In this document: positions 5,485-23,888 of the stretch, in pieces
Position numbering within the stretch: the stretch's first letter is position 1
Layout: every line of letters starts with the position of its first letter
Assembly: GCA_013151045.1 (NCBI GenBank)
Contig: JAADIY010000028.1
Location: forward strand, 8,335-72,334
Direction: 5' to 3'
Source: Gammaproteobacteria bacterium
GTDB taxonomy: Bacteria; Pseudomonadota; Gammaproteobacteria; GCA-2400775
Length of the DNA: 64,000 nucleotides
Position numbers and translations under genes: made by a program
Notes under the pieces: model-generated
Seen by the model: only the letters and a program-made list of their open reading frames with translations
Databases searched by the model: none
What the model was told of the DNA's origin: nothing

Positions 5485-6142
5485 ATGAGCGCTAACATCA
5501 CTGCTAAAGCTCGATCACTATTGACGCTGCCTACACTAGTCTCTTTTTTACTGCTACTGACGGCGTGTGCATCAACACCAAAAGCTGCTGAACTCGAAGG
5601 CCCCCGAATTAAGAAGCGAACAGTTTAGCGAAGAATTTAATTTCCTCAATAGCTATGATCCGCTGGAATCATTTAATCGCCACATCTATAAATTCAATGC
5701 TAAATTTGATGAATATATTTTTCTTCCTATTCTTCGTACCTACCACTCGTTAACACCGCGCTTTGTCCGCAGCGGTGCTAGAAACTTTTTTGCTAACCTC
5801 GGTGAAATACCGGTGCTACTCAACTCAGCCTTACAAATAAAACCACAAAGCACACTCGTTACCGCTAGCAGGTTCATTATTAATGTCACAATTGGTGTCG
5901 GCGGGTTGTGGGATCCGGCAAGCAAGCTCGGGCTTAAAAAGCGCAATGAAGACCTCGGCCAAATCTTAGGGCATTACGGCATCGGCCCCTACCGCGTCCT
6001 GCCAATACTCGGCCCATCAAGTCTACGAGATAGTACAGCCGATATTACCGACCGCTTAGTCCAATCAGACATCAATTTTATTGGATTAGAGGAAGCTCTC
6101 AACGACGAACCCCTGCTATTTGGCCTAGAAGCCGTTAATTAA
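5485..6142 (+). CDS. mlaA: MlaA/VacJ lipoprotein, apparent frameshift between signal peptide and mature domain
   Basis: Lipoprotein signal (MSANITAKARSLLTLPTLVSFLLLLTAC) in frame 1 ends at TAG 5626. The MlaA body (DPLESFNR ... GPYRVLPILGPSSLRD) runs in frame 2 from 5567. The frames can be joined at the CCCCC run at 5601-5605. Confidence 0.7.
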
Positions 6143-6599: not shown

Positions 6600-7115
6600 A
6601 TGTCTTCTACTGATCATGATCGGCGCCTTATTGCTTTTCTATTAGGCTCAGCATTCTTTTTGTTTATTGGCACAACCCATGGTGTCGTCCAAGTATTGCC
6701 TGGCATACGTGACTGGTTAGTATCAGTTGGAACGCCGGTCAGCGGGCCCGGCCATATGATTGATCCACTTGCGCATGCGCATATCAACTTAGTCGGTGGC
6801 ATGGTGCTGATAAGCATGGCAATGACCTATTATCTATTCCCGCGTATTGCTGGCTGCCAAATTTGGTCTGGTAAATTAATTAGTCATTCTTTTTGGTGGA
6901 CTGCAGCTGGAGTTGTCGGCTTTTACACAACACTCATGGTATTTGGCATCACTGAAGGCCGCTTGATGCGTGCTGGTGAGCTAGAACAACAAGCCGCCGT
7001 GCATACCTACTACGGCATGACCATTAGCGTGCCAGCAACCATTATGGCCATTGGTTTTTGGATGTTTTTTATTAACATCTTCGCAACCGCACGTATTTAT
7101 TTTAAGAACCGCTAA
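6600..7115 (+). CDS. membrane protein resembling the C-terminal helices of heme-copper oxidase subunit I (CcoN-like fragment paralog)
   Basis: 171 aa, 4-5 TM; HAHINLVGG ... YYLFPR motif parallels the HAHLALLGF ... YYGL heme-ligand region of the full CcoN-like gene at 17939-19345; paralog at 21321-21860. Confidence 0.5.
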   Translation: MSSTDHDRRLIAFLLGSAFFLFIGTTHGVVQVLPGIRDWLVSVGTPVSGPGHMIDPLAHAHINLVGGMVLISMAMTYYLFPRIAGCQIWSGKLISHSFWWTAAGVVGFYTTLMVFGITEGRLMRAGELEQQAAVHTYYGMTISVPATIMAIGFWMFFINIFATARIYFKNR

Positions 7116-7128
7116 TCACTTCAATATC

Positions 7129-7647
7129 ATGACCTTAGAGTGTGGTTGTCCAGAACATTACCCAAATGAATGGGATGGGCAAGACATCGATCTTAGTGGG
7201 CACTGTGTTCACTCTCACTCTATACCCACGTTCTTACATATGCCGATTAACTATGCCGGTCATATGATGCGTCAGGCAGCTTCAGTTAATGCCTTAGAAC
7301 TAAAAGAACGCTGGCCAGGTTTTACCCTAACGAGGACGGGCATGCTTGGTGGAGAAATTTTACGTCTTATCGAAGACACAGATTCGCCTTCAAGACTAGT
7401 CAAATATCTACCTATCAACTTCGACGTTCGCTGTGTCATTCATCAAGGCACCATGAAGACATTACGTGACAGTGCACGTGTGGTACAACAAGCTTTATTT
7501 GATGAAGGCAAATTACCCAAAGAAATGTACCTGTGCCATCTTACTTGCCCACGCTGTGCAGAGGAAAGAGGGGGTGACAAAATCTTATTATTACGTCGTT
7601 GGCAAGCCAGTACAACTTTGCAGACGCGTCTAAATAATCGAAAATAA
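7129..7647 (+). CDS. Cys/His-rich hypothetical protein, possible metal binding
   Basis: About 172 aa from an internal ATG (the longer ORF overlaps the previous gene); CGCPEH, HCVHSH and CHLTCPRC motifs. Confidence 0.4.
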   Translation: MTLECGCPEHYPNEWDGQDIDLSGHCVHSHSIPTFLHMPINYAGHMMRQAASVNALELKERWPGFTLTRTGMLGGEILRLIEDTDSPSRLVKYLPINFDVRCVIHQGTMKTLRDSARVVQQALFDEGKLPKEMYLCHLTCPRCAEERGGDKILLLRRWQASTTLQTRLNNRK

Positions 7648-7648
7648 T

Positions 7649-8029
7649 TTATTGCTCTTGAGGCCAAGGCAATTCAAAGTGCAATACTGTCTCTTCTGCA
7701 CCCCGTTTAAGTTTGACATAAAGATACTCGTCGCCTTCTTCAATTTTTACTGCGCGACGAAACACACCGATATGACCATCTTGAACCGATTGCACCCATT
7801 TAGCCGACTCATTTGAACGCAGCCAAACAATTAGGCTCGAAGCAGGAGCACCTTTTTTCTTAGTCGATTTCAGCCAAATTTCATTAAAACCAACCTTAAC
7901 TGGATAAGGGTGCGTCTCTATCTTAAATATGATGTCATTCCATAACTGCGCGGGAACACGTGCCTGGTCCCCTTTACTGCATGCAACCATAGATAATGAT
8001 AATAAAAGAATAGCGATAAGCTGACGCAT
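7649..8029 (-). CDS. lipoprotein, hypothetical
   Basis: 126 aa; lipobox LSMVAC; last gene of the tightly packed minus-strand operon. Confidence 0.45.
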   Translation of the reverse strand: MRQLIAILLLSLSMVACSKGDQARVPAQLWNDIIFKIETHPYPVKVGFNEIWLKSTKKKGAPASSLIVWLRSNESAKWVQSVQDGHIGVFRRAVKIEEGDEYLYVKLKRGAEETVLHFELPWPQEQ

Positions 8030-8034
8030 ATTAC

Positions 8035-8346
8035 TTATTGTTCCTTTGAGTGTTTCATTAAATATTCGATCACTTCATTAATTTCTAGTTCGGTAAGAAC
8101 TGGCATCGCTTGTTGCGAGCGGTGCACTTGCATACGCAATACTACTGCACGCCAATCTTTAGCAGCTTTGGTTTCCGGCTTGGGTGCAACATGACAACTA
8201 CCACAATATTCCACTAATGCAATTTGATTTTCAGAACCTGATGAAAGAGCCCTGTTTTCAATAGTATCCTCTTCAACACTACAACTCGCGCTAAGCATCA
8301 ATACTATAAAGAAAACTAATCTATTTACCTTTGCTCTGGTCACCAT
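8035..8346 (-). CDS. mono-heme c-type cytochrome (lipoprotein)
   Basis: 103 aa; signal/lipobox LSASCS; single CGSCH heme-binding motif. Confidence 0.6.
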   Translation of the reverse strand: MVTRAKVNRLVFFIVLMLSASCSVEEDTIENRALSSGSENQIALVEYCGSCHVAPKPETKAAKDWRAVVLRMQVHRSQQAMPVLTELEINEVIEYLMKHSKEQ

Positions 8347-8791
8347 CGCTATCTTTGCTTACTTTTGAGCTCTCATCAGCATCAGTCTTACTAGAGTTCA
8401 TACCAAACATACTGATCATGGCATAGATAAAACCACCTGAGATAGCGATATATACCAAAGCTAATCCAAAACCCCAATTAAACCATTCTCTTTCGAAACC
8501 TTCACGATCACCCCAGAATGGAAAGCTTAAGAATATCGCGAACAACAATACAGCAATAATCACCGCTACAAACCATTTTGGTATAGCAACTTGAGACTCG
8601 GAAACCTTATCAACCATTTCCCAGTCTTCTAAACCACGCTTAGCCAAACGCTCCTCTTCTGAAGCGTAGCCATAAAAATCATCTGATTTCTTACCCCACT
8701 CTTGCTCAATCGACTCTAAAGGCACCTGTTTGCCCGCTGATTCATCTGGTTCAGCAGACTCGACATTGCTCTCTTGCTTATTAGTAACCAT
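8321..8791 (-). CDS. membrane protein, FixH-like by position (downstream of FixG-like gene)
   Basis: 156 aa with 2 TM and acidic termini; start overlaps the FixG-like stop. Confidence 0.4.
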   Translation of the reverse strand: MVTNKQESNVESAEPDESAGKQVPLESIEQEWGKKSDDFYGYASEEERLAKRGLEDWEMVDKVSESQVAIPKWFVAVIIAVLLFAIFLSFPFWGDREGFEREWFNWGFGLALVYIAISGGFIYAMISMFGMNSSKTDADESSKVSKDSDGDQSKGK

Positions 8792-10101
8792 TATTTTTCC
8801 ACCGCTACGTGATGAACCCGAAAACTACGTCGCCAGCCATCTGTTGATTCTACTTTAACTAAAAATGGATATAAACCAGGTTCTAAATCATGACTGATAT
8901 TGAATTTGACATATTTTCTCTCAGCCGTATCAAATGACGCTATCGTTGACTGAAAACGGTATGCATCTTCATCCAAGCCCTCTATAGAGACTGAAACCTC
9001 AGCGGGCTGATAAAGCTTATGTGAAAGCGAAACACGAAATTCATTTTCATTTCGCCCTTGCGCTGTCTGTGTATCATAAACCGAGAACCGGTAAGGCTCA
9101 TAGTTGACCATGCCCCAACTAAACATACCAACACCTAGTGTTACCAATGGAAGGATCCAAAAGAAACGTGACCGTAGCGCCATCATCGCATTGCGTGGTT
9201 GTTCTTTTTTAACCTGACGTTCTCCCATCGCAAAACTCAACAAACTAGCCCCCATTTTACGTGACCCGCGAATGCTCTCACATGCTGTAATGCATTCGCC
9301 ACAATTAATACATGCATCATAAGTCTGCGTCTTTCGTGGGTCTATCTCAACAAAGCAAGACGTCTGACAAAAATTACAGCGCGCGCACTCATCAGCAGCC
9401 GATGTATCGTGAACAATATGTAATGTCTCTTTGGTCTTAAATGAATGCTGCCATACTTTATATACGCACATAAAACGACAAAAAAAATGTCGTAGGTAGG
9501 CAACATCAACAAATATAATTAATACACAAATACCATAAATATAATATTCCGAACCGTTCATTCCATCAGCTGATTGAAATGTAACAAAATCAAAAAGAGT
9601 ATCTAGTGGATAAAAATAAAGCATCGGGATAAAACCAGCCACCATAGAGAAACCTAGCAATATCGCACCCAAACCCAACCAGTTTACGATTTTATTTTTA
9701 CCTGACGATACTTTCATTGGCGCACCATCAAGCATCACCTCTGAATTCTTACCAAGCAGACGCCGATGCCAATAGTTAGCCCATTCAGACATAGTATTTT
9801 GTGGGCAAGACCATCCGCAAAATGCCGTCCCTAAAGCTGAATACGTAATAATTAAAGCGCTCGACACCATCAACCAAAAACCCATGATAATGAAAAAGTC
9901 ACCAAAATCAATTTGCCGATCTAGCACCACAAAGGCACCCGCTAAGATATCGATACGGAAAAAGCCTAAAACAGGAATCAATATTGCCACCAACACAGTA
10001 ATTGCTTGCAACAGTCTCCTGCGTCGGTGTATTTTTTGTCCTGGGCTATTACTATTGACAGCAATAATTGGGATATCAGAAAGAGAAGATGACTGACTCA
10101 T
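8791..10101 (-). CDS. ccoG: FixG/CcoG-like membrane-bound 4Fe-4S ferredoxin (cbb3 oxidase assembly / cupric reductase family)
   Basis: 436 aa; N-terminal TM helices; two CxxCxxCxxxC motifs (CARCNFCQTSC, CINCGECITAC); C-terminal Ig-like periplasmic domain. Confidence 0.75.
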   Translation of the reverse strand: MSQSSSLSDIPIIAVNSNSPGQKIHRRRRLLQAITVLVAILIPVLGFFRIDILAGAFVVLDRQIDFGDFFIIMGFWLMVSSALIITYSALGTAFCGWSCPQNTMSEWANYWHRRLLGKNSEVMLDGAPMKVSSGKNKIVNWLGLGAILLGFSMVAGFIPMLYFYPLDTLFDFVTFQSADGMNGSEYYIYGICVLIIFVDVAYLRHFFCRFMCVYKVWQHSFKTKETLHIVHDTSAADECARCNFCQTSCFVEIDPRKTQTYDACINCGECITACESIRGSRKMGASLLSFAMGERQVKKEQPRNAMMALRSRFFWILPLVTLGVGMFSWGMVNYEPYRFSVYDTQTAQGRNENEFRVSLSHKLYQPAEVSVSIEGLDEDAYRFQSTIASFDTAERKYVKFNISHDLEPGLYPFLVKVESTDGWRRSFRVHHVAVEK

Positions 10102-12737
10102 AACTGTTGCACTCGCTCATTAAGCAATAAATTGGTAATAGGTCGCGCCTGATAAAGTGGACTAACACTTTTTAACTTGGCAATATATTTTTTAATAGCC
10201 TCATCATCATTATTTTTCTGAGCGATACCTAACAGAGCTTCTAAGGTTAATAGGTGATCAGGCTTAATCAATAAAATTTTCTCTAAGCTAGCTTGTTTAA
10301 CTTTTGGCGTAATACCCACACGAGACAAAGATGCCAACATCTTGTCTGCAAGAGTTCCGCTAATCCATTGATCCTTCGGGTTGCCTCTGTAAGCAAATTG
10401 TAGGAAACGCTGCGCTCGGGCCTCATCACCACTTAGTTGAGCCAACCAACTACGCATCGATGCATCGGCAGCAATATAGGCTCGCTCAAAAAGCTCTGCT
10501 TCATTCTTATTCACCTGCAAATGTTGAGCTGCGAGTTCTGCGCTAGGCCTTTGTTTGATTAACCACTCTAGCACTTCTTGAAAATTTATTTCCCCAGCGT
10601 AGCGTACGCGAGGGAGGTGATATTCTATCTGTGGCCGCCATTCATCTTCAATTAATTTGGCGGGGCTTTTAATACGACCAATATAACGACCTAACCAAGT
10701 CCATACACCCTCACCTCCTGTTTGTTTCGCATTAGATTCTAGCACTTTGATATTTTTCAATAGTCGACCAGCATCAACGGTAACACCAGGGCTACCCACC
10801 ATCGCCAACCTAAAACCATCAACAAATAATGCGGCACCAGGGAAGCTATGCTCAAACGTGTTCAATACAATTTGCAAAGCAGTTAAATCAAATTGATTAA
10901 GAGCCAACCATTGCACATAAAGACCATCTTGATTTAAGCGTGATTTAACACGATCAAATTGTTGTTGCGATAACAAACGACTACGACCAACTAAATCGGG
11001 ATGGAATAGATCCCCGACAATGACATCGTAATATTCATTAGAACGCATTAAATAACGGCGCGCGTCATCATTAATAATAGTAATCTTATTACTAATATCT
11101 CTATTGCTTTGAGCAAACCATTTATCAGCAGACTCTATTGCGCCTTTTGATATTTCAACAGCAGTAATATCCACATCAAAGTCTAAGGCTGCTGATGCTG
11201 AAATTCCAGTGCCCAAACCAAGAAACAATACTTTTTCTGCATCGGGGTTTAATAACAAGGGTAAGCGTGCTTGGTTCTTCTGAGCGACAACTGCCGTGGG
11301 CTCAGTTGAAGCGTCCATACGTTGCAGGTCTGATAACAGTAAACGCTGCCCCCGCTGCGTTTCGACAACATGGGTAGTCGCTATTGCATCTTCGTGTAGC
11401 GACAATACAGATTGGCTATTGGCATGAGCGACAGGAAGCAGCTCTGTAACCGTTGGCAGGTCCGGCAAGAAAAAAAGAGTGCTTGCGAGTATGGGTGATA
11501 CTAGCCAAAATAACCTCGCTTTACACCAGCGCATACCGGCAACAAATAAGATGATTGCTGCTATTAATATAGTTAGCGGGGTACCGACTGTAGGCATTAA
11601 TACAAATCCTGCCAACAAAGCACCAAAGCCAGCACCAATGGCATTAACACCGTAGAACCAAGCGCCTGCACTACTGGGGTCTTCATAACCTCGAACGAGT
11701 AAAGGCAACCATGCGCCTAAGCAAAAGGTCACGACAACCGTCACCATAGCTAAAGCAACACCCTGCTTTATTAGCGCGTTGATTAAAGAGCTGTACTCAA
11801 TTGTTTCGGCCCATGCCGATACGGATGCCAAGCTAATCAAAGAAATTATCGCTGCTAACGCTGCCGTGACAGGCAACAGATTCAACCAGAGTCGTCTCGC
11901 CCCCCATTGTGATAAAACACTGCCACATGCTGTGCCGGCCAGGAATATCGCTATTATTATAGCTAGTACATATTCGGTACGAAGTAAGGCCATACCGTAG
12001 AGTCTAGCCCATGCGACTTGTAGCATCAGTGCGGCTGCACCGATCAAGGCATAGCTTAGTAAATCTAAGACAGCCGGTTTTACTGAAAAGTTCCTACTAA
12101 CACTCTGCTTTAGGGGTGATTTTATGGCGATCAAAAAAAATAAAAGGCCTGTTATCGCACCTAATAGTGCAATGGTATATAAACTATTCGCCCAACCTAA
12201 TACTGGCAACAACAATACCGGCACTAACGCACCAAATGCTGCGCCCAAGGTATTGGCCGCATAGAGATGGGAAACCGTAAGCTGTGTGTCTTTTATCGCG
12301 GCAAGAACAAGTGGAAAGCCTAAGCCCATCGCCGTCGCTGGCAATAACATAAAAAATAGTGCCGCAACGAGCTCAATGCTATGCCATGCTGACAACTGGA
12401 TATCACTAGTCGCCGTGATTAAAAATTCTGACCAATATTGATTTATCGAAGGTAGCCCTACAGCATAAAGCGCTACCAATATTTCAATTAAGGCTAGGAC
12501 CATCAAAGGTCTCGCTAGGTGTAATAAATACCGTTTACCAAGAATACTACCTAGGCCTAGACCAAACATGAAAGCGCTAACTGTAATGACGACGCCAAAG
12601 TTACTGACGCCAAACTGTAGACTTAACATGCGCATCCATAGCACTTCGTAGGCTAGTGCTACGAGGCCAGAAATACCGTAGAGGATGAGCAATAGAAAGA
12701 TGAGAGGTGTTTTATCTGACCTTATCATGGTCATCAA
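10098..12737 (-). CDS. fused MFS-type membrane domain / spermidine-synthase-like (SAM-dependent aminopropyltransferase fold) / TPR protein
   Basis: 879 aa; about 12 TM N-terminal; central domain with GLGTGISA and VIVGDLFHPD spermidine-synthase motifs; C-terminal TPR-like repeats. Confidence 0.7.
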   Translation of the reverse strand: MMTMIRSDKTPLIFLLLILYGISGLVALAYEVLWMRMLSLQFGVSNFGVVITVSAFMFGLGLGSILGKRYLLHLARPLMVLALIEILVALYAVGLPSINQYWSEFLITATSDIQLSAWHSIELVAALFFMLLPATAMGLGFPLVLAAIKDTQLTVSHLYAANTLGAAFGALVPVLLLPVLGWANSLYTIALLGAITGLLFFLIAIKSPLKQSVSRNFSVKPAVLDLLSYALIGAAALMLQVAWARLYGMALLRTEYVLAIIIAIFLAGTACGSVLSQWGARRLWLNLLPVTAALAAIISLISLASVSAWAETIEYSSLINALIKQGVALAMVTVVVTFCLGAWLPLLVRGYEDPSSAGAWFYGVNAIGAGFGALLAGFVLMPTVGTPLTILIAAIILFVAGMRWCKARLFWLVSPILASTLFFLPDLPTVTELLPVAHANSQSVLSLHEDAIATTHVVETQRGQRLLLSDLQRMDASTEPTAVVAQKNQARLPLLLNPDAEKVLFLGLGTGISASAALDFDVDITAVEISKGAIESADKWFAQSNRDISNKITIINDDARRYLMRSNEYYDVIVGDLFHPDLVGRSRLLSQQQFDRVKSRLNQDGLYVQWLALNQFDLTALQIVLNTFEHSFPGAALFVDGFRLAMVGSPGVTVDAGRLLKNIKVLESNAKQTGGEGVWTWLGRYIGRIKSPAKLIEDEWRPQIEYHLPRVRYAGEINFQEVLEWLIKQRPSAELAAQHLQVNKNEAELFERAYIAADASMRSWLAQLSGDEARAQRFLQFAYRGNPKDQWISGTLADKMLASLSRVGITPKVKQASLEKILLIKPDHLLTLEALLGIAQKNNDDEAIKKYIAKLKSVSPLYQARPITNLLLNERVQQL

Positions 12738-12743
12738 CCATGC

Positions 12744-13106
12744 CTAAAACGGAAAAAACCAGACTACCGCAGCTACGCCATGAGCTAGCGCTAAAGTAAC
12801 TGTTAAACCCGCACTAATCATATGCCACATAAAAACTTGCTTACCATAAATCGCCATACTGATACCTAATATGGCAGTGGTCAGCACTAACACTAATAAC
12901 GTACTTCCCATAATAAAGAGAATGGTATGCTTTTCTTCTGTACTAATCGCGCGCGGTCCAAGATCAATTTCTTTATCCGTAAATTCAGTGATCACATCCA
13001 TAGCATTATCAGCTGACGCCGCGGTATCCGCTGATGCAAAAACAATATTACTCAACAGCAATGTGACAAGAACAATCGCAACAAGATAATAAGAGCGCAA
13101 TAACAT
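12744..13106 (-). CDS. small membrane protein
   Basis: 120 aa, 3 TM; operon-packed. Confidence 0.4.
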   Translation of the reverse strand: MLLRSYYLVAIVLVTLLLSNIVFASADTAASADNAMDVITEFTDKEIDLGPRAISTEEKHTILFIMGSTLLVLVLTTAILGISMAIYGKQVFMWHMISAGLTVTLALAHGVAAVVWFFPF

Positions 13107-13111
13107 AATAT

Positions 13112-13351
13112 TTATTCTGATTCTGATTCAGCTACTGTTTTATTTTTTTGCTTATAACGCTGCAGCGCAAAATACCAATACAGTATAGCCATGACAACAA
13201 ACGGCGCCAGCACCAAAAAACAAAGGAAAATAAAAATTGCCCACGGCGTTTCTATAGTGACATGAAAAAAACTGTAGCTATCAAGACCCGCTTGTGCGGA
13301 TAACGGCAACAGCAATAAAAGATATACATAAATAGTTCTAAAATAAAACAT
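13112..13351 (-). CDS. small membrane protein
   Basis: 79 aa, 2 TM; start 3 bp from the upstream stop. Confidence 0.4.
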   Translation of the reverse strand: MFYFRTIYVYLLLLLPLSAQAGLDSYSFFHVTIETPWAIFIFLCFLVLAPFVVMAILYWYFALQRYKQKNKTVAESESE

Positions 13352-13353
13352 AA

Positions 13354-14424
13354 CTAACCTTTTTCATCGGCAATATTTTTACTACAACGAAACCCGTAAA
13401 AATCAGACGCATAATGTGGAAAGGAATAATTTCGGTGATAAGCGGACGTTGCAAACGGATCGCTTTTAAATGATCCACCGCGCATCACAACATAAGTTGC
13501 TTCAACTTCAACTAAGTCGACCACTTTCAAAGATTTATCTAATGTTGTTGTCGCTCTACCTACTTTCGGTATAAACAACTCAGCCTGCGCATCAGCACCT
13601 TGATATGCTACAAACTCATCTGCTGTCCATTCACTAACATTACCTGCCATATCATGAACACCATATGGGCTTTTACCCGTCGGATAACGAGTGACATCGG
13701 TTGCCGAACCAACACTATAGTAGGTATTAAGATTGTCAGCGTCCATCAAATTACCCCATGGCCAACGACGACCATCTTCACCCCGTGCAGCTTTTTCCCA
13801 TTCCGCCTCTCGCGGTAAGCGTGCATCGACCCACTGACAATATCCTGCTGCGTCATACCAGGAAACCATGGTAACCGGTGCCAATAAATCCCCCGGCCTC
13901 ATTCGCCCACCACTCCAGTGTAATGGCGGTCTATGTTTAGTATCCGCAACGAAACGCGCATATTCTGCATTAGTTACCGGATACTTTCTAATCTCATAGG
14001 CGTCAGTGCTAGCTCTATGTGCTGGCTTGTCTTGATCATTCGCTAGATGGCGATCAGTGCCCATTATAAACTCGCCTGCTGGAATTTCTATCCAAGCACC
14101 GAGCTCTGACCACATATCGGGGGTTAATAACTCTTCCGCCTGCTCAATACTATAAGTAGTTTGAACAGTTTTTAATGCCTCGTTATGTTGATGCCGAATA
14201 ATATCCTCACCCGCAGCTCGAATTCGAGACTCCATTTCAGAGATATCGTAAGTTGCACTCGCACGCATTTGATCGATACGACTGCCACCTAGCTGGACAA
14301 GATGATAAAACGCGAAAACAATTGCAGCGGCAGCACACGTCACCAGTGTTGCTGCTAAAAAAACCTTTCGCTTCGCGCGCTCCATGCCATCAATTTGAGG
14401 AGTTTGTGTAAACTTTTTGGCCAT
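13354..14424 (-). CDS. FGE-sulfatase family protein (formylglycine-generating-enzyme / SUMF1 / NirV-like), membrane anchored
   Basis: 356 aa; N-terminal TM; FGE motifs (YEIRKYPVTNAEYARF, GYCQWVDARLPREAEWEKAARG, RGGSF, HRNYSFP). Confidence 0.7.
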   Translation of the reverse strand: MAKKFTQTPQIDGMERAKRKVFLAATLVTCAAAAIVFAFYHLVQLGGSRIDQMRASATYDISEMESRIRAAGEDIIRHQHNEALKTVQTTYSIEQAEELLTPDMWSELGAWIEIPAGEFIMGTDRHLANDQDKPAHRASTDAYEIRKYPVTNAEYARFVADTKHRPPLHWSGGRMRPGDLLAPVTMVSWYDAAGYCQWVDARLPREAEWEKAARGEDGRRWPWGNLMDADNLNTYYSVGSATDVTRYPTGKSPYGVHDMAGNVSEWTADEFVAYQGADAQAELFIPKVGRATTTLDKSLKVVDLVEVEATYVVMRGGSFKSDPFATSAYHRNYSFPHYASDFYGFRCSKNIADEKG

Positions 14425-14429
14425 ACAAT

Positions 14430-14903
14430 CTAGCGGCCCAATTTAGACGGTGCTTTTTCGTCCTTGTGACCAGTGTGACGTGGCATACGACCGTAAGTTT
14501 TTTTCACCCACAATTCACCTAGTATTCCACCGACAGCTGATGCTTCAATTGCGACAATAATGATGAAACCCATATAACCTATCGGCAGCAAACGCATATC
14601 TTCTGGCATCACACTTACCCCAGTAGAGGTGCTAAAATATTGAAACAGATAAACCATTAGCGCAGGAAAATAACAAAGAACCTTGCCACCGAGACCATAA
14701 ATTAACGATACGGTAACACCGCCAATAAATGGCGTTAACACCAAACCGATAAATAAACTTGGGTGAAAATAAGAAGTTAAATCTTGAAACAACTCAAGAC
14801 GCACGCCAAACAGCAGATTGAGTGTATACATTACAACTGCACCAGATAAGATCGCAAATAAGGCCCACTTTAGCGCCTCTAGCTTATTGCTGATCTTTAT
14901 CAT
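14430..14903 (-). CDS. polytopic membrane protein, hypothetical
   Basis: 157 aa, 4 TM. Confidence 0.45.
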   Translation of the reverse strand: MIKISNKLEALKWALFAILSGAVVMYTLNLLFGVRLELFQDLTSYFHPSLFIGLVLTPFIGGVTVSLIYGLGGKVLCYFPALMVYLFQYFSTSTGVSVMPEDMRLLPIGYMGFIIIVAIEASAVGGILGELWVKKTYGRMPRHTGHKDEKAPSKLGR

Positions 14904-15393
14904 CTGATTCAGGCCACTTATTACCGGTTAATTTTTTATATTCCAGTTTCTTAAGGTCTTCTAAATACCAATCTTCCACTTTTAGGCTAGCCATATACGC
15001 AGCTAGGGTCCTTCTATCTTCTTCAGGGAGATGCGCGTAAGACGGCATACTCCATTCCGCTTTCAAACGCCCTTTCAATATCTGCTGAGGGTCTTCAGAA
15101 GAAAAATAATCAAATAACCAATCTTCTGACCGTAATGATCCAATTCCATCTAATATTGGAGCCGGAACCGTAGCCATAATATTTTTAATTGTCCAAAGCG
15201 AATGACACTTCTTACAATTTTGTTCTTTGTAAATGACATCACTCGCTATAGTCAGCTCTTTTGTAGCAGTACTATAAAATGGAATCGACTTCTCTTGATC
15301 TGGTGTCTGAGAAAAACCTATATAATTACGCACCATTAGGCCAACTATGAGAAGCCCCATACCACCTAATATCAACTTTTCCCCGGTACGCAT
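14884..15393 (-). CDS. mono-heme c-type cytochrome, membrane anchored
   Basis: 169 aa; N-terminal TM; CKKCH motif. Confidence 0.6.
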   Translation of the reverse strand: MRTGEKLILGGMGLLIVGLMVRNYIGFSQTPDQEKSIPFYSTATKELTIASDVIYKEQNCKKCHSLWTIKNIMATVPAPILDGIGSLRSEDWLFDYFSSEDPQQILKGRLKAEWSMPSYAHLPEEDRRTLAAYMASLKVEDWYLEDLKKLEYKKLTGNKWPESDDKDQQ

Positions 15394-15405
15394 GCAGCTC
15401 TACCC

Positions 15406-15690
15406 TTATGCGCTTTCTTGAGCTTGGCGCGCTTTAGCTTTTTCAGCTAACAACTCTGCACGGCGCGATTCTTGCGCAGCATTAACTTCTTGAAACTTGG
15501 CAAACTCTTCTGGGCTCATTTTATCTTTGTCATTTTCGTCAAAGACCAAGTATTTTATATCTTCATCAAACTGCTCATTCTTATACGCCCAGCGTATACC
15601 GATTATCGCTGCGATAATAATTCCGCCTGCTGCGACCATCCACAAATATATTGTCCAACCATCAGGTAGGGATTGCATAAATTCAGTCAT
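15406..15690 (-). CDS. small single-TM protein with charged C-terminal tail (CcoQ/FixQ-like by architecture only)
   Basis: 94 aa. Confidence 0.35.
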   Translation of the reverse strand: MTEFMQSLPDGWTIYLWMVAAGGIIIAAIIGIRWAYKNEQFDEDIKYLVFDENDKDKMSPEEFAKFQEVNAAQESRRAELLAEKAKARQAQESA

Positions 15691-15699
15691 CGTACTCTC

Positions 15700-16002
15700 C
15701 TAAATAAGCTGTCCAAACAGTAATTGTGCTGCACCATAAATTACCGCACAAATCAGCCCAAAAATCAGCCAAGCAAATAATACCACTTCGCCCTTACGCA
15801 TGCCTTTTTCGCCCTTACGCTTGCCATCTTTATAAGCGTCGCGTGCAAATTTATAAACCACCACTGTAAATAAAATAATAATACCGGCCATCATAAAGAA
15901 AAAGATGCCGATGCTATATTCCTGTGATTTAAGTCCCTCGATGGTGAACTGATCCAGCTCTTCATCTGAGAGAATTATGGCGTTGTTATCGGTATTATTC
16001 AT
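15700..16002 (-). CDS. small 2-TM membrane protein
   Basis: 100 aa. Confidence 0.4.
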   Translation of the reverse strand: MNNTDNNAIILSDEELDQFTIEGLKSQEYSIGIFFFMMAGIIILFTVVVYKFARDAYKDGKRKGEKGMRKGEVVLFAWLIFGLICAVIYGAAQLLFGQLI

Positions 16003-16060: not shown

Positions 16061-16104
16061 TTTTTGAGAAAAAATGCCGCTCAAGAGAGCGGCATTTTAT
16101 TTCC
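16061..16104. terminator. bidirectional rho-independent terminator splitting the cluster into two operons
   Basis: 12-bp perfect stem aaaatgccgctc / gagcggcatttt with loop aaga; A-run on one side and T-run on the other. Confidence 0.55.
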
Positions 16105-16130: not shown

Positions 16131-16247
16131 TCATTGCTTATCTGACTTATCGAAATTATCAATCATAAAGCTGTAAATGTAAGGTGCTACAAATACAACC
16201 AAAATAGGTATAAGCAGTATTAATGGTGGATTATCTAATTCAATCAT
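16131..16247 (-). CDS. small single-TM membrane peptide (38 aa), below ORF-track cutoff
   Basis: MIELDNPPLILLIPILVVFVAPYIYSFMIDNFDKSDKQ; AGGTGA-like RBS; similar to the 6382-6504 peptide; followed by the terminator. Confidence 0.45.
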   Translation of the reverse strand: MIELDNPPLILLIPILVVFVAPYIYSFMIDNFDKSDKQ

Positions 16248-16272: not shown

Positions 16273-16917
16273 TTAGTGGCCAATTGAATGGTCTGGTTCC
16301 CAATCTGAAGGGGGCAAACGCTTCACTGTAATCATAACAGCAATACAAAAGTAAATAACGTAGAAAATATCGATGGTATAGCCAATATCCCACGAAGGTT
16401 GAACCCGAATTTTCACACCATCATCACGGTATTCGCCTTCAAAGTTAGCTAACGCTACATCTTTACCAACAATCGTGTAGTAGTCCATATCAGCATTTTC
16501 GCGCTGTAATTCAACAATTTGATCTTTGACAAGACGCAAATCATTCATTGTTAAAGGATGACGATCCTGATGGCCTGCCCAATCAGAGCCTTGAGACTTA
16601 ACTGTGTCAACAATATAAGCCATCTTATCTTCATCGTTATCAAGTGCTGCAACTTCTGGAGTATCCATCAGAGCAATATACTCTTCATAGATAATAGCCA
16701 TAGGGCGTTGACCCCACAAAGGTGCTGTTACCAAAAACGCTGTAATAATTGTCAGCATCAACAACCACACCACTGCCTGTGGCAAGCGATTATTGTCTTC
16801 CATAATGCCACCCAGACTCTCGTGCTCCCAAACATGTCTTGCATGCTCGTTCTGATCGCTGGTTGCTAACGTATATAGTGGTTTATCGTATTTCCAAGCC
16901 ATTTGGCTATCCTCCAA
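16273..16917 (-). CDS. 2-TM membrane protein with acidic periplasmic/cytoplasmic domain, hypothetical (occupies the CcoP position but has no heme motif)
   Basis: 214 aa. Confidence 0.45.
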   Translation of the reverse strand: MEDSQMAWKYDKPLYTLATSDQNEHARHVWEHESLGGIMEDNNRLPQAVVWLLMLTIITAFLVTAPLWGQRPMAIIYEEYIALMDTPEVAALDNDEDKMAYIVDTVKSQGSDWAGHQDRHPLTMNDLRLVKDQIVELQRENADMDYYTIVGKDVALANFEGEYRDDGVKIRVQPSWDIGYTIDIFYVIYFCIAVMITVKRLPPSDWEPDHSIGH

Positions 16918-16928
16918 GGAAAACTAAA

Positions 16929-17877
16929 TTACTTCAAACTCAAGACATAATCCATCAAGTAACGGATTTCGCTGTTAGGCGCATAATCAGGTACCAATGG
17001 TGGATAAAGACTCTTGCCTGCAGCGTACTCTTTATAATCAGCACGCCATTGATCAAAGTCAATCTCGTTACCGTTAGCATCAACTTCGCCCCATAAATAA
17101 TCGAAGCGAGGCATAATTGAATGCGGCTGAACTAATCTTGGATTGAAAAAATGCATCATCATCCATTCTTTCGATGAGTTACGCGAACCAACATGCAATA
17201 AATCAGGAGCCTTACGATCAGAACCAAACGCGGTTGGAGCCTCACCATTAAAATCACCTAGACGCGGCGGCAAACCAAAATATTGCCAATCCTGAGTTTG
17301 CTCAGGAAGCAGCGTATGACACCTCGCAGCCTTCACGTACGAACATCGTTTTACCGCTACCAACGTGACGCTTATCAGTATCCGCGGCTGAGGCTAATAC
17401 TGCCGCAGCAGTCCAATCACGAGTCGCGCTAGCATTTTCAATATAGGGGAAGGTTTCACCTTCGTAATCACCACGCGACACCAAGAATACTGCGCCTTCA
17501 TCTGAAGTCGCAACACCAACTTGACCATCATCAGCACTTAATGCTGCGACCTCAGTACCAAGGATACCCGGATTACGAACCGCACTAGGAAACGGGGTTC
17601 CCGGCACATAGACATAAGCGTCAACCGGATCAATATCAGCACCTGTGACAGGATCTTTCTTGATAGTAACAGTTAAAGGCTTACCTTTCCCTTGTAGGAA
17701 CGGATCCTCGTAGGAAAAACCTGAGTTATGGCCATAAGACAAACCTTTAACCAAACCTGTTTCAGTCACGCCAACACTATAAATAGTTAAGCTAGGCATA
17801 TATAAGGTGATCATCATTGAACCACCTAATGCGATACCAAACATGCGGGTACCAATTTTATACTCTCTAAAAGCCAT
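16929..17877 (-). CDS. CcoO/FixO-like (NorC-like) mono-heme subunit with long N-terminal insertion; frame break inside the heme-binding motif
   Basis: Upstream frame ends ...TMFVREGC EVSYAAS*; the downstream frame continues ARCHTLLPEQ ... APDLLHVGSRNSSKEWMMMHFFNPRLVQPHSIMPRFDYLW, colinear with the CcoO stretches REGCYNCHSQMIRPF and [38 protein letters not shown]. Only 4 nt lie between the two Cys codons. Confidence 0.55.
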
Positions 17878-17938: not shown

Positions 17939-19345
17939 TTAACGTTCGTATGCGATCTCATGTGGCAAACGACCTACTGGCACTGGCGTACCTGCACGTG
18001 CTGTCATCCACATGTTATAGAGCCAAACAACGTTACCAGTAAATACCATCGTACCGCCGACCCAACGAGCAATCATATAAGGATGCTCTGCAATAACCAC
18101 GTCGATATAAGGCACTTCGTAGATCTTCGCCGCACCCTGAATCAAACCAGCAATAGTGATTGAGATCCAGTAGGTTGCAAAACCAATCAATAAGAACCAG
18201 AAGTGGAAATTAGCTAGCGCCAATGAGTACAGCTTACGACGCAAGATCGTTTGTAGGCCGTAGTACACAGCAGCAGCTTCTAGGAAAGTAGAGAAACCTA
18301 GCAAGGCCAAATGAGCATGAGCCACAATCCAACCAGTACCATGTACATACCAGTTAATGGCACGCGTTTGCTGGAAACCACCCTGCATATTTAGCGGGAT
18401 AGCTAACATAACACCCGTAATGGTAAAACGAATTTCGATGTTATCAACAAAGTAATGCCATTTACCGGTCATGGTAAGGAGCAGGTTAGATACAAACGCA
18501 ATCGCTGGCACCAAAATCAACACACCCTCAACAGAGGCGAAAGATTTTAGCCACTCAGGCAATGGTGATGACATCAAATGATGCGCTGCTGGTGTTGAGT
18601 AAAATACAACCACTGACCAGAAATGCAAGTGACCAATACGATGAGAGTACAGTGGATTACCGGTAATCTTCGGCACCGTATAATAGGCAATCGCCGCTGC
18701 CACCGGGGTAATCCACAAGCCAAGAATGTTATGGGCGTGCCACCAGGTCAAATAGGCTTCTGTCAAACCGGTCAGAGAAAAGTACTCCGGCAGGTTACCG
18801 ACCAGCACCACAATCATCAACATGAATATGGCCGAACCAAAAAACCAGTTGGTGGTGTAAATACCCTGCGTCTTACGATGAACGATGGTCATCCAGACAT
18901 TGATCCCCAATGGCAACAGCACTGCGAACAGGATAATCAGATCAATAGGCCATGGAAAGTCAGTGTACTCACGTCCGGAAGTAATACCGGCCCACATCAG
19001 GCACAAGGCAACAGAGAGACCAGCGTTCCAGTTAAAACAGGTCCAGATACCAAGCTTTTCAGACCAAAGTTTGGTATTACCCAAAGCAGGCGTGATGTAC
19101 ATAAAGGCCATGGCAAAGGCCATTGAGATCCAGCCGAAGATAACGGCCATGACGTGAACTTGGCGCATATGACCAAAGGCAAACATATAGCTACCGGTTA
19201 CAAAATCCGGGAAAGCGAGTTTTGCAGCATTAAAAGAACCCAAGGCAGTCCCAATAATAAACCAGATGATGGACGAAAACCCAAAAAAGACAGCCGCTGA
19301 ACCTGCGGGTATATCTTCGTTCTTCGCAAAAAGATACTTGAACAT
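17939..19345 (-). CDS. cbb3-type (C-family) heme-copper oxidase subunit I, CcoN-like, divergent
   Basis: 468 aa, 12 TM; conserved His ligand pattern (FGHMRQVH; WWHAHNILG; PAAHHLM; VAHAHLALLG) matches CcoN, not the NorB HLWVEG pattern. Confidence 0.8.
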   Translation of the reverse strand: MFKYLFAKNEDIPAGSAAVFFGFSSIIWFIIGTALGSFNAAKLAFPDFVTGSYMFAFGHMRQVHVMAVIFGWISMAFAMAFMYITPALGNTKLWSEKLGIWTCFNWNAGLSVALCLMWAGITSGREYTDFPWPIDLIILFAVLLPLGINVWMTIVHRKTQGIYTTNWFFGSAIFMLMIVVLVGNLPEYFSLTGLTEAYLTWWHAHNILGLWITPVAAAIAYYTVPKITGNPLYSHRIGHLHFWSVVVFYSTPAAHHLMSSPLPEWLKSFASVEGVLILVPAIAFVSNLLLTMTGKWHYFVDNIEIRFTITGVMLAIPLNMQGGFQQTRAINWYVHGTGWIVAHAHLALLGFSTFLEAAAVYYGLQTILRRKLYSLALANFHFWFLLIGFATYWISITIAGLIQGAAKIYEVPYIDVVIAEHPYMIARWVGGTMVFTGNVVWLYNMWMTARAGTPVPVGRLPHEIAYER

Positions 19346-20315: not shown

Positions 20316-20768
20316 TTATTTATAAATACGCAGGCTCGCCATTGCATCGTCATAAACCGTGGCAGACTCAAACTGACCGCGGTGAAACACATACTGACGT
20401 TTTTTACCTGACATATCCAAACCAGTAAGCCCAAACGACTTTCCGGCGTAGTCAGAAAAAAAGCGCACCTCTTTAACCAGAGACACGTGATCGTTGCTAC
20501 GCAGCCTGAGCGTGACATGCTGCTTACTCACACTTAGCGCAACGGGCGCACTAGGCAGCAGCATCAAGCGTCCAGACAATATTCGATTAGCACCGATAAA
20601 ACCCATAAAACAGGCAAGAAACATTAGCAAATAAGCTAAGGGTTGATTGCCTTGGTACCATAACACTAAGGCATAGGCACCAAGCAGTATCACTACTGGC
20701 AGATAAAGCAGTGCATCCCAAGCCGCGCCACGACGATCGGGCGCCAAACTATAATCTTGTTTCGCCAC
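20316..20768 (-). CDS. membrane protein, hypothetical
   Basis: 150 aa, 2 N-terminal TM plus soluble domain. Confidence 0.45.
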   Translation of the reverse strand: MAKQDYSLAPDRRGAAWDALLYLPVVILLGAYALVLWYQGNQPLAYLLMFLACFMGFIGANRILSGRLMLLPSAPVALSVSKQHVTLRLRSNDHVSLVKEVRFFSDYAGKSFGLTGLDMSGKKRQYVFHRGQFESATVYDDAMASLRIYK

Positions 20769-20771
20769 TAC

Positions 20772-21290
20772 TTAACCTGCTTCAGGGTTTAGCTTCGCAG
20801 CCAGTGTCTCAGATATGATGGCATCCATTTCACCGTACAACATACGGCCTGGTCGCTTAAACTTCACCTGCTTATCCGCGCCAATAACGAATGTCCAAGG
20901 ATCACCTTGAACGCCAAAGGCGGTGAACGCTTCTGGGTTTTGATACTGATCCATATGCAAAAACAACACATCGTCTTCATATTTATTCAATATCGCTTTA
21001 AGCATCTGTAATTGTTTATCACATACTGTGCAATGCCCTGGGGTAGCAAACTCTAGCAATATTGTTTTATTCTGCGCCAAGGCCTCATCAATCGACAATT
21101 GATACATACGCGCATCTGGCTGGCGGTACGTCGTGATACGACTAAAATCACCACTAACATCTGCTAATGTCTTGGTCTTCAATGACGGCGCATACTCACC
21201 TACACGTAACTGGCCTTCAGGCGTAATGTCACACGCACTCAGCATCATTGTTAACGCTGCAGCCGTCAGCAAACTCGCATATGATTTCAT
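20772..21290 (-). CDS. thioredoxin-fold lipoprotein (TlpA/ResA/Sco-like thiol-disulfide oxidoreductase)
   Basis: 172 aa; lipobox MLSAC; FATPGHCTVCD CxxC motif. Confidence 0.55.
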   Translation of the reverse strand: MKSYASLLTAAALTMMLSACDITPEGQLRVGEYAPSLKTKTLADVSGDFSRITTYRQPDARMYQLSIDEALAQNKTILLEFATPGHCTVCDKQLQMLKAILNKYEDDVLFLHMDQYQNPEAFTAFGVQGDPWTFVIGADKQVKFKRPGRMLYGEMDAIISETLAAKLNPEAG

Positions 21291-21320
21291 TTCACTAACC
21301 TCAAGTTAAGCATTCAGCAA

Positions 21321-21860
21321 TTAAGCGCTGCTAGGAACATCTTTTTCCCAACCAACACAGCTGCGAAAAACGTTATAACCCCAGATACAATTTGCCAATA
21401 GCACCATAGAACCAAAAATTCCCATAGCCGCGAGCCAGGGCTTAATAACCGCTTCCACCTCACTAGGAGGCAAACTCACGCTAGCAGTTCCACCCAATAT
21501 GCCGGCAATGGTAAATAAACTCACCATACCGATCAAACCAATATTGTGTATCCAGAAATGCACTTTAACCAGCTTCAAACTATAAATCGGTCGTTTCACC
21601 AAACGCGGCACAAAATAATAGACCGCAGCAAAAATCGCCATTTCCACCCAACCCAATAAATTAACATGGGTATGAGCACGCACTATCAACTGACCATGAG
21701 CACGGTGATCGACAAAGTGGCGTAGCTCGGCGATGCCGCCCATCAAAGCACCCCAAGAAAAGCCAATGATGCTATAAATGATACAAGCGTAGAGAAACAA
21801 TAAGGTATAGCGTGTGTACTCTACGTCGTCCTCCCAAGGAGCATTGTTCGAAACACTCAT
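21321..21860 (-). CDS. membrane protein resembling the C-terminal helices of heme-copper oxidase subunit I (paralog of 6600-7115)
   Basis: 179 aa; RAHTHVNLLGWVEMAIFAAVYYFVPR motif; start ATG overlaps the stop of the upstream cytochrome c (ATGA). Confidence 0.5.
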   Translation of the reverse strand: MSVSNNAPWEDDVEYTRYTLLFLYACIIYSIIGFSWGALMGGIAELRHFVDHRAHGQLIVRAHTHVNLLGWVEMAIFAAVYYFVPRLVKRPIYSLKLVKVHFWIHNIGLIGMVSLFTIAGILGGTASVSLPPSEVEAVIKPWLAAMGIFGSMVLLANCIWGYNVFRSCVGWEKDVPSSA

Positions 21861-23366: not shown

Positions 23367-23888
23367 TACAACACCCTCCAAAAAAACTGTGTCGAGGCCG
23401 TGACCGACCTTTTATTAACTTCATGACTACCGCATTCAACGAACATTTCGCTGCAGCAATCTATAATTCAAATTTGGGAAGCTTCAAGCCTACCAAATAA
23501 CGGTTCGCTTAAGAGCTTTTCTTCAGCAAAAACCAAGCAAATCCCCAAGCTAGTGGGAACCAAATCGCGTAAAGTATGACTACGTCTGCAGTCTCTAGCA
23601 TGGCTAACCTCTGATTATCTTAATGATTCATAAAATGAATAAAACGGGCGACTGTATACCATGAAAACAGCACTCAGCGCAAGCTCAGTTATGCCATTAT
23701 AGCGTCAATATTGGCACTGTTTTTAACCCAAACCACCCTTCTAATAGATTGATTTTTAACGAAAATTAAGCTGTCAATGAAAAACAAAAACAGCACAGCA
23801 AAAAATTTTAGCCCAACTGCATTAGATGACCACAGACAGAGTTTCCGGTATGCTCCGCAGCCATCTCCAACGGCGGCAATTCTAAGCC

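Follow-up and report, generated by a model that had tools for sequence, protein, structure and literature searches.

A conserved twelve-gene operon beside a CcoNO-only cbb3-type oxidase in a gammaproteobacterial genome, and its possible role as the accessory unit of that oxidase

A stretch of 64,000 nucleotides (nt) from the genome of an uncultured gammaproteobacterium (GenBank assembly GCA_013151045.1, contig JAADIY010000028.1, positions 8,335 to 72,334 of the forward strand), referred to below as the window and numbered from its first letter, carries twelve tightly packed minus-strand genes downstream of the genes for a cbb3-type oxidase. These genes, numbered g1 to g12 in the order of transcription, form an operon that is nearly always linked to a CcoNO oxidase in other genomes. 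The operon belongs to a respiratory island of about 17 kb that also encodes a Cyc1-type dihaem cytochrome, two truncated CcoN proteins, a thioredoxin-like lipoprotein and the CcoNO oxidase, and that is typical of neutrophilic iron-oxidising and electrode-oxidising Proteobacteria. The interpretation that we tentatively put first, with slightly less than even confidence, is that the twelve genes are the accessory transcription unit of this CcoNO-only oxidase, an expanded counterpart of ccoGHIS that would also replace CcoP and CcoQ. The genes of the operon are as follows.

g1, 15700-16002, minus strand: protein of 100 amino acids (aa) with two transmembrane (TM) helices; ratio of nonsynonymous to synonymous substitution rates (dN/dS) 0.10
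g2, 15406-15690, minus strand: CcoS/FixS-like single-TM peptide with an acidic tail
g3, 14884-15393, minus strand: membrane-anchored monohaem cytochrome c with a CKKCH motif and one TM helix (Pfam Cytochrom_C, 5e-8)
g4, 14430-14903, minus strand: 157 aa, three to four TM helices
g5, 13354-14424, minus strand: N-terminal TM anchor followed by a formylglycine-generating enzyme (FGE)-sulfatase-fold domain
g6, 13112-13351, minus strand: small membrane protein of 79 aa
g7, 12744-13106, minus strand: 120-aa membrane protein with three conserved TM histidines
g8, 10098-12737, minus strand: 12-TM major facilitator superfamily (MFS)-fold domain, a 13th TM helix, an aminopropyltransferase-fold domain (the fold of spermidine synthase, SpdS) at about residues 440-700 and a helical tail resembling tetratricopeptide repeats (TPR)
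g9, 8791-10101, minus strand: CcoG/FixG-type protein with five TM helices, CGWSCPQ, two four-cysteine motifs and a C-terminal periplasmic domain (Fer4_5 and Fer4_18)
g10, 8321-8791, minus strand: haem-less protein resembling the N-terminal anchor of CcoP (FixP_N), paralogous to a 214-aa protein of the oxidase half
g11, 8035-8346, minus strand: small secreted or lipid-anchored monohaem cytochrome c with a CGSCH motif (Pfam DHC, 5.6e-7)
g12, 7649-8029, minus strand: probable lipoprotein of 126 aa

The twelve open reading frames (ORFs) run from 16002 down to 7649 on the minus strand, with spacings from g1 to g12 of +9, +12, -20, +5, +2, +5, +6, -4, -1, -26 and +5 nt. An earlier reading of the window, made from its letters without database searches (the sequence-only reading), had proposed one tight unit of twelve ORFs with gaps or overlaps of 0-10 bp. 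The coordinates and spacings bear out the unit and its tightness, but the range, -26 to +12 nt, somewhat exceeds the one given. The true start of g8 is probably the ATG at 12734. All twelve ORFs are real genes under purifying selection, as dN/dS against a 95%-identical relative (L004, GCA_054018395.1) is 0.04-0.27 for each of them, and the indels inside them are all in frame or frame-restoring. At the 3' end of the operon the stop codons of g12 (minus strand, 7649) and of a convergent Bact_hydrolase gene (plus strand, 7647) abut, one base apart, leaving no space between the genes for a terminator.

At the upstream end the operon is set off from the oxidase genes by a hairpin.

Intrinsic terminator or attenuator, 16066..16098, minus strand: between the oxidase genes and g1

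The stem at 16071-16098 is a perfect 11 bp with a UCUU loop and a U-run, and the 66-nt context folds at -23.2 kcal/mol (z = -5.2), a stability reached by none of 200 shuffled sequences. The strong terminator previously placed at 16061-16104 is therefore real. It had also been called bidirectional, and the A-run and U-run are indeed symmetric, but only one direction is relevant here because the genes on both sides are on the minus strand. The hairpin is a terminator or attenuator that follows ccoN, ccoO, the gene for the 214-aa protein and a 38-aa ORF, and it separates two co-directional blocks. If the operon is an accessory unit, the hairpin would lower its expression relative to the very highly expressed ccoNO genes, in the way that structural and accessory genes differ in ccoNOQP/ccoGHIS. 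Terminator-like hairpins, unrelated in sequence, were found at the analogous place in seven of nine loci. Among metagenome loci, a junction hairpin with a folding energy (dG) of -12 or lower was seen in 26 of 46 as against 8 of 46 coding-region controls, and one of -15 or lower in 18 of 46 as against 3 of 46. A transcriptional break at the junction between oxidase and operon is thus frequent, not universal. No FNR/Anr box was found upstream of ccoN or g1, a scan for sigma-70 and terminator patterns performed no better than on shuffled sequence and failed to pick up the real hairpin, and Rfam and tRNA scans of the window were empty.

The linkage of operon and oxidase was quantified in 80 metagenome loci anchored on g8 (41-51% identity), in which each gene was counted only where the flanking sequence sufficed. 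Full-length CcoN was present in 35/35 loci, CcoO in 44/44 and the 214-aa protein in 47/47. Within the operon, g2 (49/49), g3 (49/49), g4 (53/53) and g5 (57/57) were found throughout, followed by g6 (69/71), g7 (71/72), g9 (56/59), g10 (51/54) and g12 (48/52). The lower counts of g1 (42/49) and g11 (25/54) are probably detection-limited because both proteins are short and divergent. The downstream truncated CcoN (B, below) was present in 35/44 loci and its partner Bact_hydrolase in 20/45. Orthologues of g5 comprise more than 120 clusters at 55-60% identity, and a profile scan of genome contigs with the FGE alignment gave at least eight orthologous loci, the other 72 loci listed being general FGE-family genes without the cluster. 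The same gene order over about 17 kb was seen in three neighbourhoods of g5 orthologues and at least eight genome loci; it is the same in ten genome or contig loci, M. ferrooxydans among them, and it is shared with Zetaproteobacteria, Ectothiorhodospiraceae and Chromatiaceae metagenome-assembled genomes (MAGs). Mariprofundus ferrooxydans (L086, GCA_000379405.1), which was compared directly, holds the complete set in the same order, with an extra monohaem cytochrome c after g12. Overall, the order is conserved in about 90 other loci. The linkage within the operon and with the divergent CcoN is therefore conserved in Gammaproteobacteria and Zetaproteobacteria and, in reduced form, in Leptospirillum. 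A test of accidental adjacency, set beforehand, came out against chance, which the co-occurrence of g5, g9 and CcoN in the metagenomes rejects.

Two loci depart from the common arrangement. In one genome (L003) both halves of the island are on one contig within about 20 kb, in swapped order and with about 7 kb of unrelated genes between them; the operon can therefore be separated from the oxidase genes but remains in their vicinity. A Leptospirillum contig (L017, DAHWBS010000001.1, 6700-13800) carries a reduced and reshuffled island of CcoO, a FixP_N-like protein, a cytochrome c, a CcoS-like protein, a g4-like protein, a truncated CcoN, an FGE-like protein, a second truncated CcoN, a g6-like protein, a CcoG-like protein and a homologue of the 150-aa island protein with two TM helices. 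The FGE-like gene is flanked there by the two truncated CcoN genes, and CcoO is without the insertion described below.

The oxidase to which the operon is linked is encoded by the following genes.

ccoN, 17939..19345, minus strand: catalytic subunit of a CcoNO-only ('distal') cbb3-type oxidase (COX1, 1.6e-73)
ccoO, 16929..17877, minus strand: FixO domain with a periplasmic insertion, about 110-140 aa longer than the 176-aa CcoO of Leptospirillum
Gene for the 214-aa protein, 16273..16917, minus strand: haem-less, resembling the N-terminal part of CcoP (FixP_N, E 1.4e-4; Mariprofundus orthologue, E 0.0017)
38-aa single-TM ORF, 16131..16247, minus strand: after the 214-aa gene, in the position of CcoQ

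CcoN aligns near full length with CcoN1 of Pseudomonas stutzeri (3mk7; E 2e-64) and is 78-88% identical in relatives. With this CcoN, which has the haem and CuB histidines, and the monohaem subunit CcoO, the oxidase belongs to the cbb3-type (C-family) haem-copper oxidases. The 214-aa protein contains no CXXCH, so the oxidase is without a dihaem CcoP. Genes of 34-44 aa occupy the position of the 38-aa ORF in L001, L004, L086 and L168. A CcoNO-only 'distal' cbb3 type has been described for Zetaproteobacteria and Sideroxydans (PMC7029218, PMC8788666), and the present oxidase fits this type in its subunit content. In relatives ccoO is a single ORF of 311-317 aa; here it is split into two ORFs by a 2-nt deletion at about 17326, which destroys the CWWCH haem motif. 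Over 17302-17363, where the deletion is accompanied by substitutions, TGTTGGTGGTGTCAT (CWWCH) in L004 corresponds to TGCGAGGTGTCAT in the window. Since both halves are 99% identical to L004 at the protein level, the break must be very recent if it is a true inactivation; otherwise it is an assembly error in a TGG repeat.

The resemblance of the operon to ccoGHIS is clearest in g9 and g2. The architecture of g9 is that of CcoG, which has been shown by experiment to be a cupric reductase and is encoded directly downstream of cbb3 genes (PMC7558416). Its CGW.CPQ, C..MC and two tetra-cysteine motifs are invariant in 10 orthologues, and the iron-sulphur motifs lie in a K/R-rich loop (204-313) predicted to be cytoplasmic. 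Against the CcoG model TIGR02745, g9 aligns near full length at E 5e-30 and scores 104.7 bits where the cutoff is 316.7, which places it in a separate paralogous branch. Like its homologue, g9 would reduce Cu(II) to Cu(I) on the cytoplasmic side. The match of g2 to Pfam FixS (E 0.0013, 18.8 bits) is under the gathering score of 23.1, and that of its Mariprofundus orthologue is weaker (E 0.027, 14.6 bits). Its conserved motif, RWA..n.QFDEDIKY, contains a W-A-x4-Q-F-D-(D/E) pattern like that of FixS. By analogy with CcoS, g2 may help to insert the haem b3-CuB centre into CcoN.

Together with a thioredoxin-like lipoprotein encoded upstream, the CcoG-type protein and the CcoS-like peptide make a role in oxidase maturation plausible. 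To this extent the idea of a dedicated maturation route, put forward in the sequence-only reading, is supported; its more specific parts are not, as the FGE-fold protein is without the features of a copper oxidase, the MFS protein without copper motifs, and CcoI and CcoH are absent. As with ccoGHIS (fixGHIS), the operon appears as an accessory set directly downstream of cbb3 structural genes with a CcoG-type and a CcoS-like protein. It differs from that set in having no CcoH, no CcoI, ten extra genes and sub-threshold CcoG and CcoS scores, and in serving an oxidase without CcoP.

Roles in structure or electron transfer besides maturation are indicated by the two membrane cytochromes c and by three paralogous pairs that join the two halves of the island. 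Nearly all products of the operon are anchored in the membrane, and prediction places the large soluble domains of g3, g5, g8, g11 and g12 in the periplasm. In our interpretation the cytochromes g3 and g11 and the FixP_N-like anchors (g10 and the 214-aa protein) would stand in for the missing dihaem CcoP, and electrons would pass from the periplasmic Cyc1-type cytochrome through g3/g11 and the anchors to CcoO and CcoN. The anchors are related at E 5e-5 (BLASTP), and g10 carries a conserved DWE.V..P.WF...PFWGdR motif. The small proteins g1, g4, g6 and g7 would be membrane subunits or assembly helpers. Pfam scans of g1, g4, g6, g10, g12 and their Mariprofundus orthologues found no family.

The remaining members of the island, which bear on how far the operon is an assembly unit at all, are the following.

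Dihaem cytochrome c, Cyc1-like, 22602-23381, minus strand: 41% identical over its full length to the dihaem cytochrome of the M. ferrooxydans island
TM monohaem cytochrome c, 22183-22497, minus strand: truncated by a 5-nt duplication
Truncated CcoN A, 179 aa, 21321..21860, minus strand: COX1, 1e-18, with an H-x-H haem-ligand pair
Thioredoxin-like lipoprotein (HCTVC) and 150-aa protein with two TM helices, 20316..21290, minus strand: conserved island members
Truncated CcoN B, 171 aa, 6600-7115, plus strand: convergent to the operon and paired with the Bact_hydrolase gene
Cysteine-rich 'Bact_hydrolase' (PF20603) protein, probably 7129-7647, plus strand: convergent to g12

The sequence of the dihaem cytochrome is consistent with Cyc1. 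An ATTGG ATTGG tandem duplication at about 22230 shortens the TM monohaem cytochrome c to 104 aa, against 211 aa for its L004 orthologue. Apart from this duplication and the ccoO deletion, both of which are outside the operon, no coding indel with a net effect on the reading frame was found in the 17-kb alignment with L004. The Bact_hydrolase protein accompanies truncated CcoN B in many loci; its CGCP and LTCPRC motifs are invariant and suggest a metal or Fe-S site.

The truncated CcoN proteins may be the most unusual component of the island. With about 170-180 aa each, they match the part of CcoN that forms its final four-helix unit and includes the H-x-H pair. The profile of truncated CcoN A additionally matches the CcoN segments of helix II and helix VI, which reflects the pseudo-repeat inside haem-copper oxidases. 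Identity among truncated CcoN A sequences is 71-91% over more than 120 protein clusters, and five histidines are invariant (H55, H63, H65, H101 and H105). Two of these, H63 and H65, line up with H345/H347 of P. stutzeri CcoN, the ligands of haem b3 and haem b. The paralogous pairs between the oxidase half and the operon half are the truncated CcoN proteins (E 7e-10), the TM monohaem cytochromes c, namely g3 and the upstream one (E 6e-12), and the FixP_N-like anchors.

This conservation and pairing open another explanation, in which the operon products, the two truncated CcoN proteins, the paralogous TM cytochromes c and the Bact_hydrolase protein would form an autonomous membrane complex that works beside CcoNO and does not mature it. 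Ligands for haem b would come from the H-x-H pair of the truncated CcoN proteins and from the TM histidines in g7, and the CcoG-type Fe-S protein would move electrons across the membrane. The conserved histidines of g7, with a weak match of its Mariprofundus orthologue to cytochrome b561 (E 0.04), are in keeping with this, as is the Leptospirillum cluster, in which the FGE-like and CcoG-like proteins remain together with CcoO and both truncated CcoN proteins, with no full-length CcoN within 10 kb. A membrane complex has also been proposed by the authors of a preprint on Tenderiales (10.1101/2022.05.06.490989). Nevertheless, a complex independent of the oxidase is hard to square with full-length CcoN and CcoO beside the operon in every testable locus (35/35 and 44/44), or with the proximity of the two halves in L003, the one genome in which they are separated. 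CcoS-like and CcoG-like proteins are known as assembly factors and not as subunits, truncated CcoN B is missing in 9/44 loci and Bact_hydrolase in 25/45, and no CuB ligand set could be demonstrated in the truncated CcoN proteins. An autonomous complex is the main competing explanation, though on balance a rather unlikely one.

Some of the same evidence has to be counted against the interpretation of the operon as an accessory unit of the oxidase. A second structural module would explain better than pure assembly why there are three paralogous pairs and why truncated CcoN is as strongly conserved as CcoN. The Leptospirillum island combines FGE-, CcoG- and CcoS-like genes and a cytochrome c gene with CcoO and two truncated CcoN genes, and has no full-length CcoN within 10 kb and no MFS/SpdS gene. 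The canonical copper route is incomplete, since no homologue of the Cu-ATPase CcoI or of CcoH is encoded in the island; g9 and g2 both score under the curated family cutoffs; and a terminator-like hairpin is seen in only about half of the related loci.

The FGE-fold protein g5 is central to a further explanation. Its FGE-sulfatase domain is clear (Pfam PF03781, E 3e-50, residues 110-347), and it had been taken as a member of a family of copper-dependent oxidases. The two Cu(I)-binding cysteines of FGE sit between the GGS(W/Y) and GFRC motifs (C336/C341 in the human enzyme). The corresponding segment of g5 has no cysteine in 29/29 orthologues and is instead near-invariant as KSDPF(S/A)TxxYHRNYS(W/F)PHYASDF(F/Y), with S321, D322, P323 and F324 invariant, inside an invariant RGGSWKSDPF..YHRN..P.YASDF.GFR motif. 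Profile searches of the PDB with g5 rank ToxD, the cysteine-less SUMF2, OvsA, CalU17 and EgtB above true FGEs, and the segment and C-terminal motif align with SUMF2. A search with the C-terminal 52 residues gave nothing useful, and an AlphaFold model from the 29-orthologue alignment reached a predicted local distance difference test (pLDDT) score of 55.7 and was not used for fold searches. From its sequence, g5 is a protein of FGE fold and not a copper oxidase of the FGE type. It resembles SUMF2/pFGE, PvdO and PorK in having this fold without the Cu-binding cysteine pair, and differs from them in its N-terminal TM anchor, its predicted periplasmic location and its place in a respiratory cluster. 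The location is predicted because six K/R residues precede the single TM helix.

The fused protein g8 gives a similar picture. The description of a fused MFS/spermidine-synthase protein is supported at the family level, with 85 bits against NF037959 where the cutoff is 40, but the signature acids of the synthase are missing and the domain is predicted to be periplasmic. Modelled by AlphaFold on an alignment of 31 orthologues (pLDDT 86.6, predicted template-modelling score 0.84), g8 has 13 TM helices, then a domain made of a beta-hairpin and a Rossmann fold, and lastly a helical tail; the aminopropyltransferase fold with its N-terminal beta-hairpin domain is present. In alignment with solved SpeE sequences, GLGTG replaces GGGDG/GGGEG, and T510 is invariant in the 31 orthologues. 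The acidic residue of GGG(D/E)G selects decarboxylated S-adenosylmethionine (dcAdoMet). In the D-S-x-D-P region the first catalytic aspartate is kept (D576), whereas the second (Asp173 of the Tm enzyme) is replaced by an invariant His579. Scores against the equivalog models are far under their cutoffs (39.6 against 249.55 for TIGR00417, 49.4 against 260 for PRK00811 and 77.5 against 472 for PRK03612). Summed over loops, the mean K+R content of the 31 orthologues is 14.1 for the predicted inner and 4.1 for the predicted outer loops. As the MFS core has both ends inside and one extra, 13th helix follows, the SpdS/TPR part is predicted to be periplasmic, and on this model the SpdS-fold domain would be away from AdoMet and dcAdoMet. 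Compared with SpeE and NF037959, g8 thus has GLGTG for GGG(D/E)G, His579 for the second aspartate, an additional 13th TM helix and a helical tail of about 170 aa.

A comparison with CcoA/CalT, the MFS copper importer for cbb3 biogenesis, is also of interest, because g8 is likewise an MFS-fold membrane protein tied genetically to a cbb3 oxidase. The copper motifs of CcoA, MxxxM and HxxxM, lie in TM7 and TM8 (PMC7558416). Neither is present in g8, whose TM region has no conserved Met/His cluster, and a CcoA-like importer role was rejected on the absence of the motifs.

These results bear directly on the route that had been proposed for the operon, in which an FGE-like copper oxidase (of FGE type, or of the type proposed for NirV) would act in the maturation of a copper site or a modified residue, with the MFS/SpdS protein making or moving the cofactor and FixG supplying Cu(I). 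NirV is encoded next to nirK, of which the window contains no copy. The clear FGE-sulfatase domain, the CcoG-type and CcoS-like proteins, the conserved linkage to CcoN, the upstream thioredoxin-like lipoprotein and a NirK-like multicopper protein at the edge of the M. ferrooxydans island all speak for such a route. Nonetheless, the FGE cysteine pair is missing from all 29 orthologues of g5, and none of the 26 island proteins contains a C/S-x-P-x-R target motif. Moreover, g8 has neither the CcoA copper motifs nor the acid that selects dcAdoMet, its second aspartate has become His579, and its SpdS-fold domain is predicted to be in the periplasm, where AdoMet and dcAdoMet are not expected. Likewise g12 has no conserved Cys, His or Met among its orthologues and hence no conserved Cu ligand. 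We rate this route as decidedly improbable, because the test of the key FGE residues fails.

A still simpler alternative is to take the annotation at face value, with a polyamine synthase or exporter and a sulfatase-maturing enzyme beside the oxidase by chance. Public records do name g8 'spermine synthase' and g5 'formylglycine-generating enzyme family protein', and the aminopropyltransferase fold of g8 is real. The linkage to the oxidase in about 90 loci, the speE equivalog score of 39.6 against a cutoff of 249.6, the missing signature residues of FGE and SpdS and the absence of any sulfatase or CxPxR motif, no Sulfatase domain being found among the approximately 45 window ORFs scanned, make this explanation extremely improbable. 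If the operon is the accessory unit of the oxidase, g5 and g8 would be neither an FGE oxidase nor a polyamine synthase; their FGE-fold and SpdS/TPR periplasmic modules, which have lost the catalytic signatures, could act as scaffolds or chaperones or catalyse some other reaction.

A bolder proposal, and in our estimation an unlikely one, is that the operon and the truncated CcoN proteins make up a membrane complex derived from a haem-copper oxidase, in which the g8 and g5 domains carry out new periplasmic chemistry, such as the tailoring of a cofactor or residue, or act as obligatory structural subunits. If true, this haem-copper-derived complex would be needed for O2 respiration on high-potential donors such as Fe(II) and cathodes.

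The cluster itself has been documented since 2013 and is uncharacterised, and the present locus is a further case of it. Twenty genes in conserved order are shared by Sideroxydans ES-1 and Mariprofundus PV-1, and 14 of them, mostly hypotheticals, also occur in Leptospirillum (Emerson et al., 2013, PMC3770913). The distal ccoNO of Sideroxydans ES-1 is in the 99th expression percentile. A study of Candidatus Tenderia electrophaga (Eddie et al., 2017, PMC5371394) places Cyc1 in a region syntenic with M. ferrooxydans and finds an oxidase-like 'complex IV' gene set (IV-2), which may correspond to the ccoNO of the island, among the most highly expressed genes. Four genes of the syntenic region, for a polyferredoxin and three hypothetical proteins, were expressed there too and reacted to the electrode potential. 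Judging from locus-tag numbering, we infer that these four genes are orthologues of g9-g12.

The Tenderiales preprint describes a conserved 26-gene 'cbb3-1/cbb3-2' region and proposes that it may encode a complex in the membrane, 'a sort of alternative complex IV', along with several assembly proteins (10.1101/2022.05.06.490989). Compared by list, the gene order of the window matches that published for Candidatus Tenderia (Fig. 2B of the preprint) gene for gene: a dihaem cytochrome, a monohaem cytochrome, a truncated CcoN, a thioredoxin, unnamed genes, CcoN, CcoO and further unnamed genes, followed by a monohaem cytochrome, a 'serine threonine protein kinase', a single-TM protein, CcoG, a monohaem cytochrome and the second truncated CcoN. 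The listed kinase is probably the FGE-like gene, given its position and a 78%-identical orthologue that bears the same name. The window differs from the published clusters in coming from another organism, an uncultured Thiotrichales-like gammaproteobacterial MAG, and in the frame-breaking indels of ccoO and one cytochrome c. The published papers assign the cluster no function; in them the FGE fold goes unrecognised and the MFS/SpdS protein undiscussed, and no paper joining cbb3, spermidine synthase and formylglycine was found. What the present analysis adds to the published record is a quantified linkage, a transcriptional break that recurs, the absence of family-defining residues from the FGE-fold and SpdS-fold proteins, the predicted periplasmic SpdS-like domain and the paralogous module structure.

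The CcoNO-only oxidase of the island, the presumed end of the Cyc2 -> Cyc1 -> oxidase pathway, ranks with the most highly expressed genes of neutrophilic iron oxidisers and probably also of electrode-grown Candidatus Tenderia, and the system as a whole is abundant. The present results narrow the hypotheses on how an oxidase without CcoP works and matures, and on why some 20 genes accompany it. They also show that the public annotations 'spermine synthase', 'serine/threonine protein kinase' and 'formylglycine-generating enzyme' are misleading for these proteins and should not be propagated.

Several observations were made at the edges of the island and of the window. Bordering the M. ferrooxydans island are a NirK-like multicopper protein at one end and two bacterial globins at the opposite end (411-1472 and 21142-22008). 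In the window a divergent gene at 23889-25280 (plus strand) encodes a 463-aa polytopic membrane protein without a Pfam match, and proteins of 463-488 aa, likewise without a Pfam match, also flank the island in L001, L004, L168 and L086. This neighbour was considered as a candidate for Cyc2 and rejected, since it is a polytopic membrane protein without CXXCH. At the end of the window (60875-63957, minus strand) there are BatD-domain and TPR proteins, and similar Bat/TPR genes adjoin the uet electron-uptake cluster of Tenderiales. On the other side of the island, a 191-aa ORF (5567-6142, plus strand) has a partial MlaA lipoprotein domain; just 72 residues of the ORF match in L004, and it may be a truncated or rearranged gene at the island edge.

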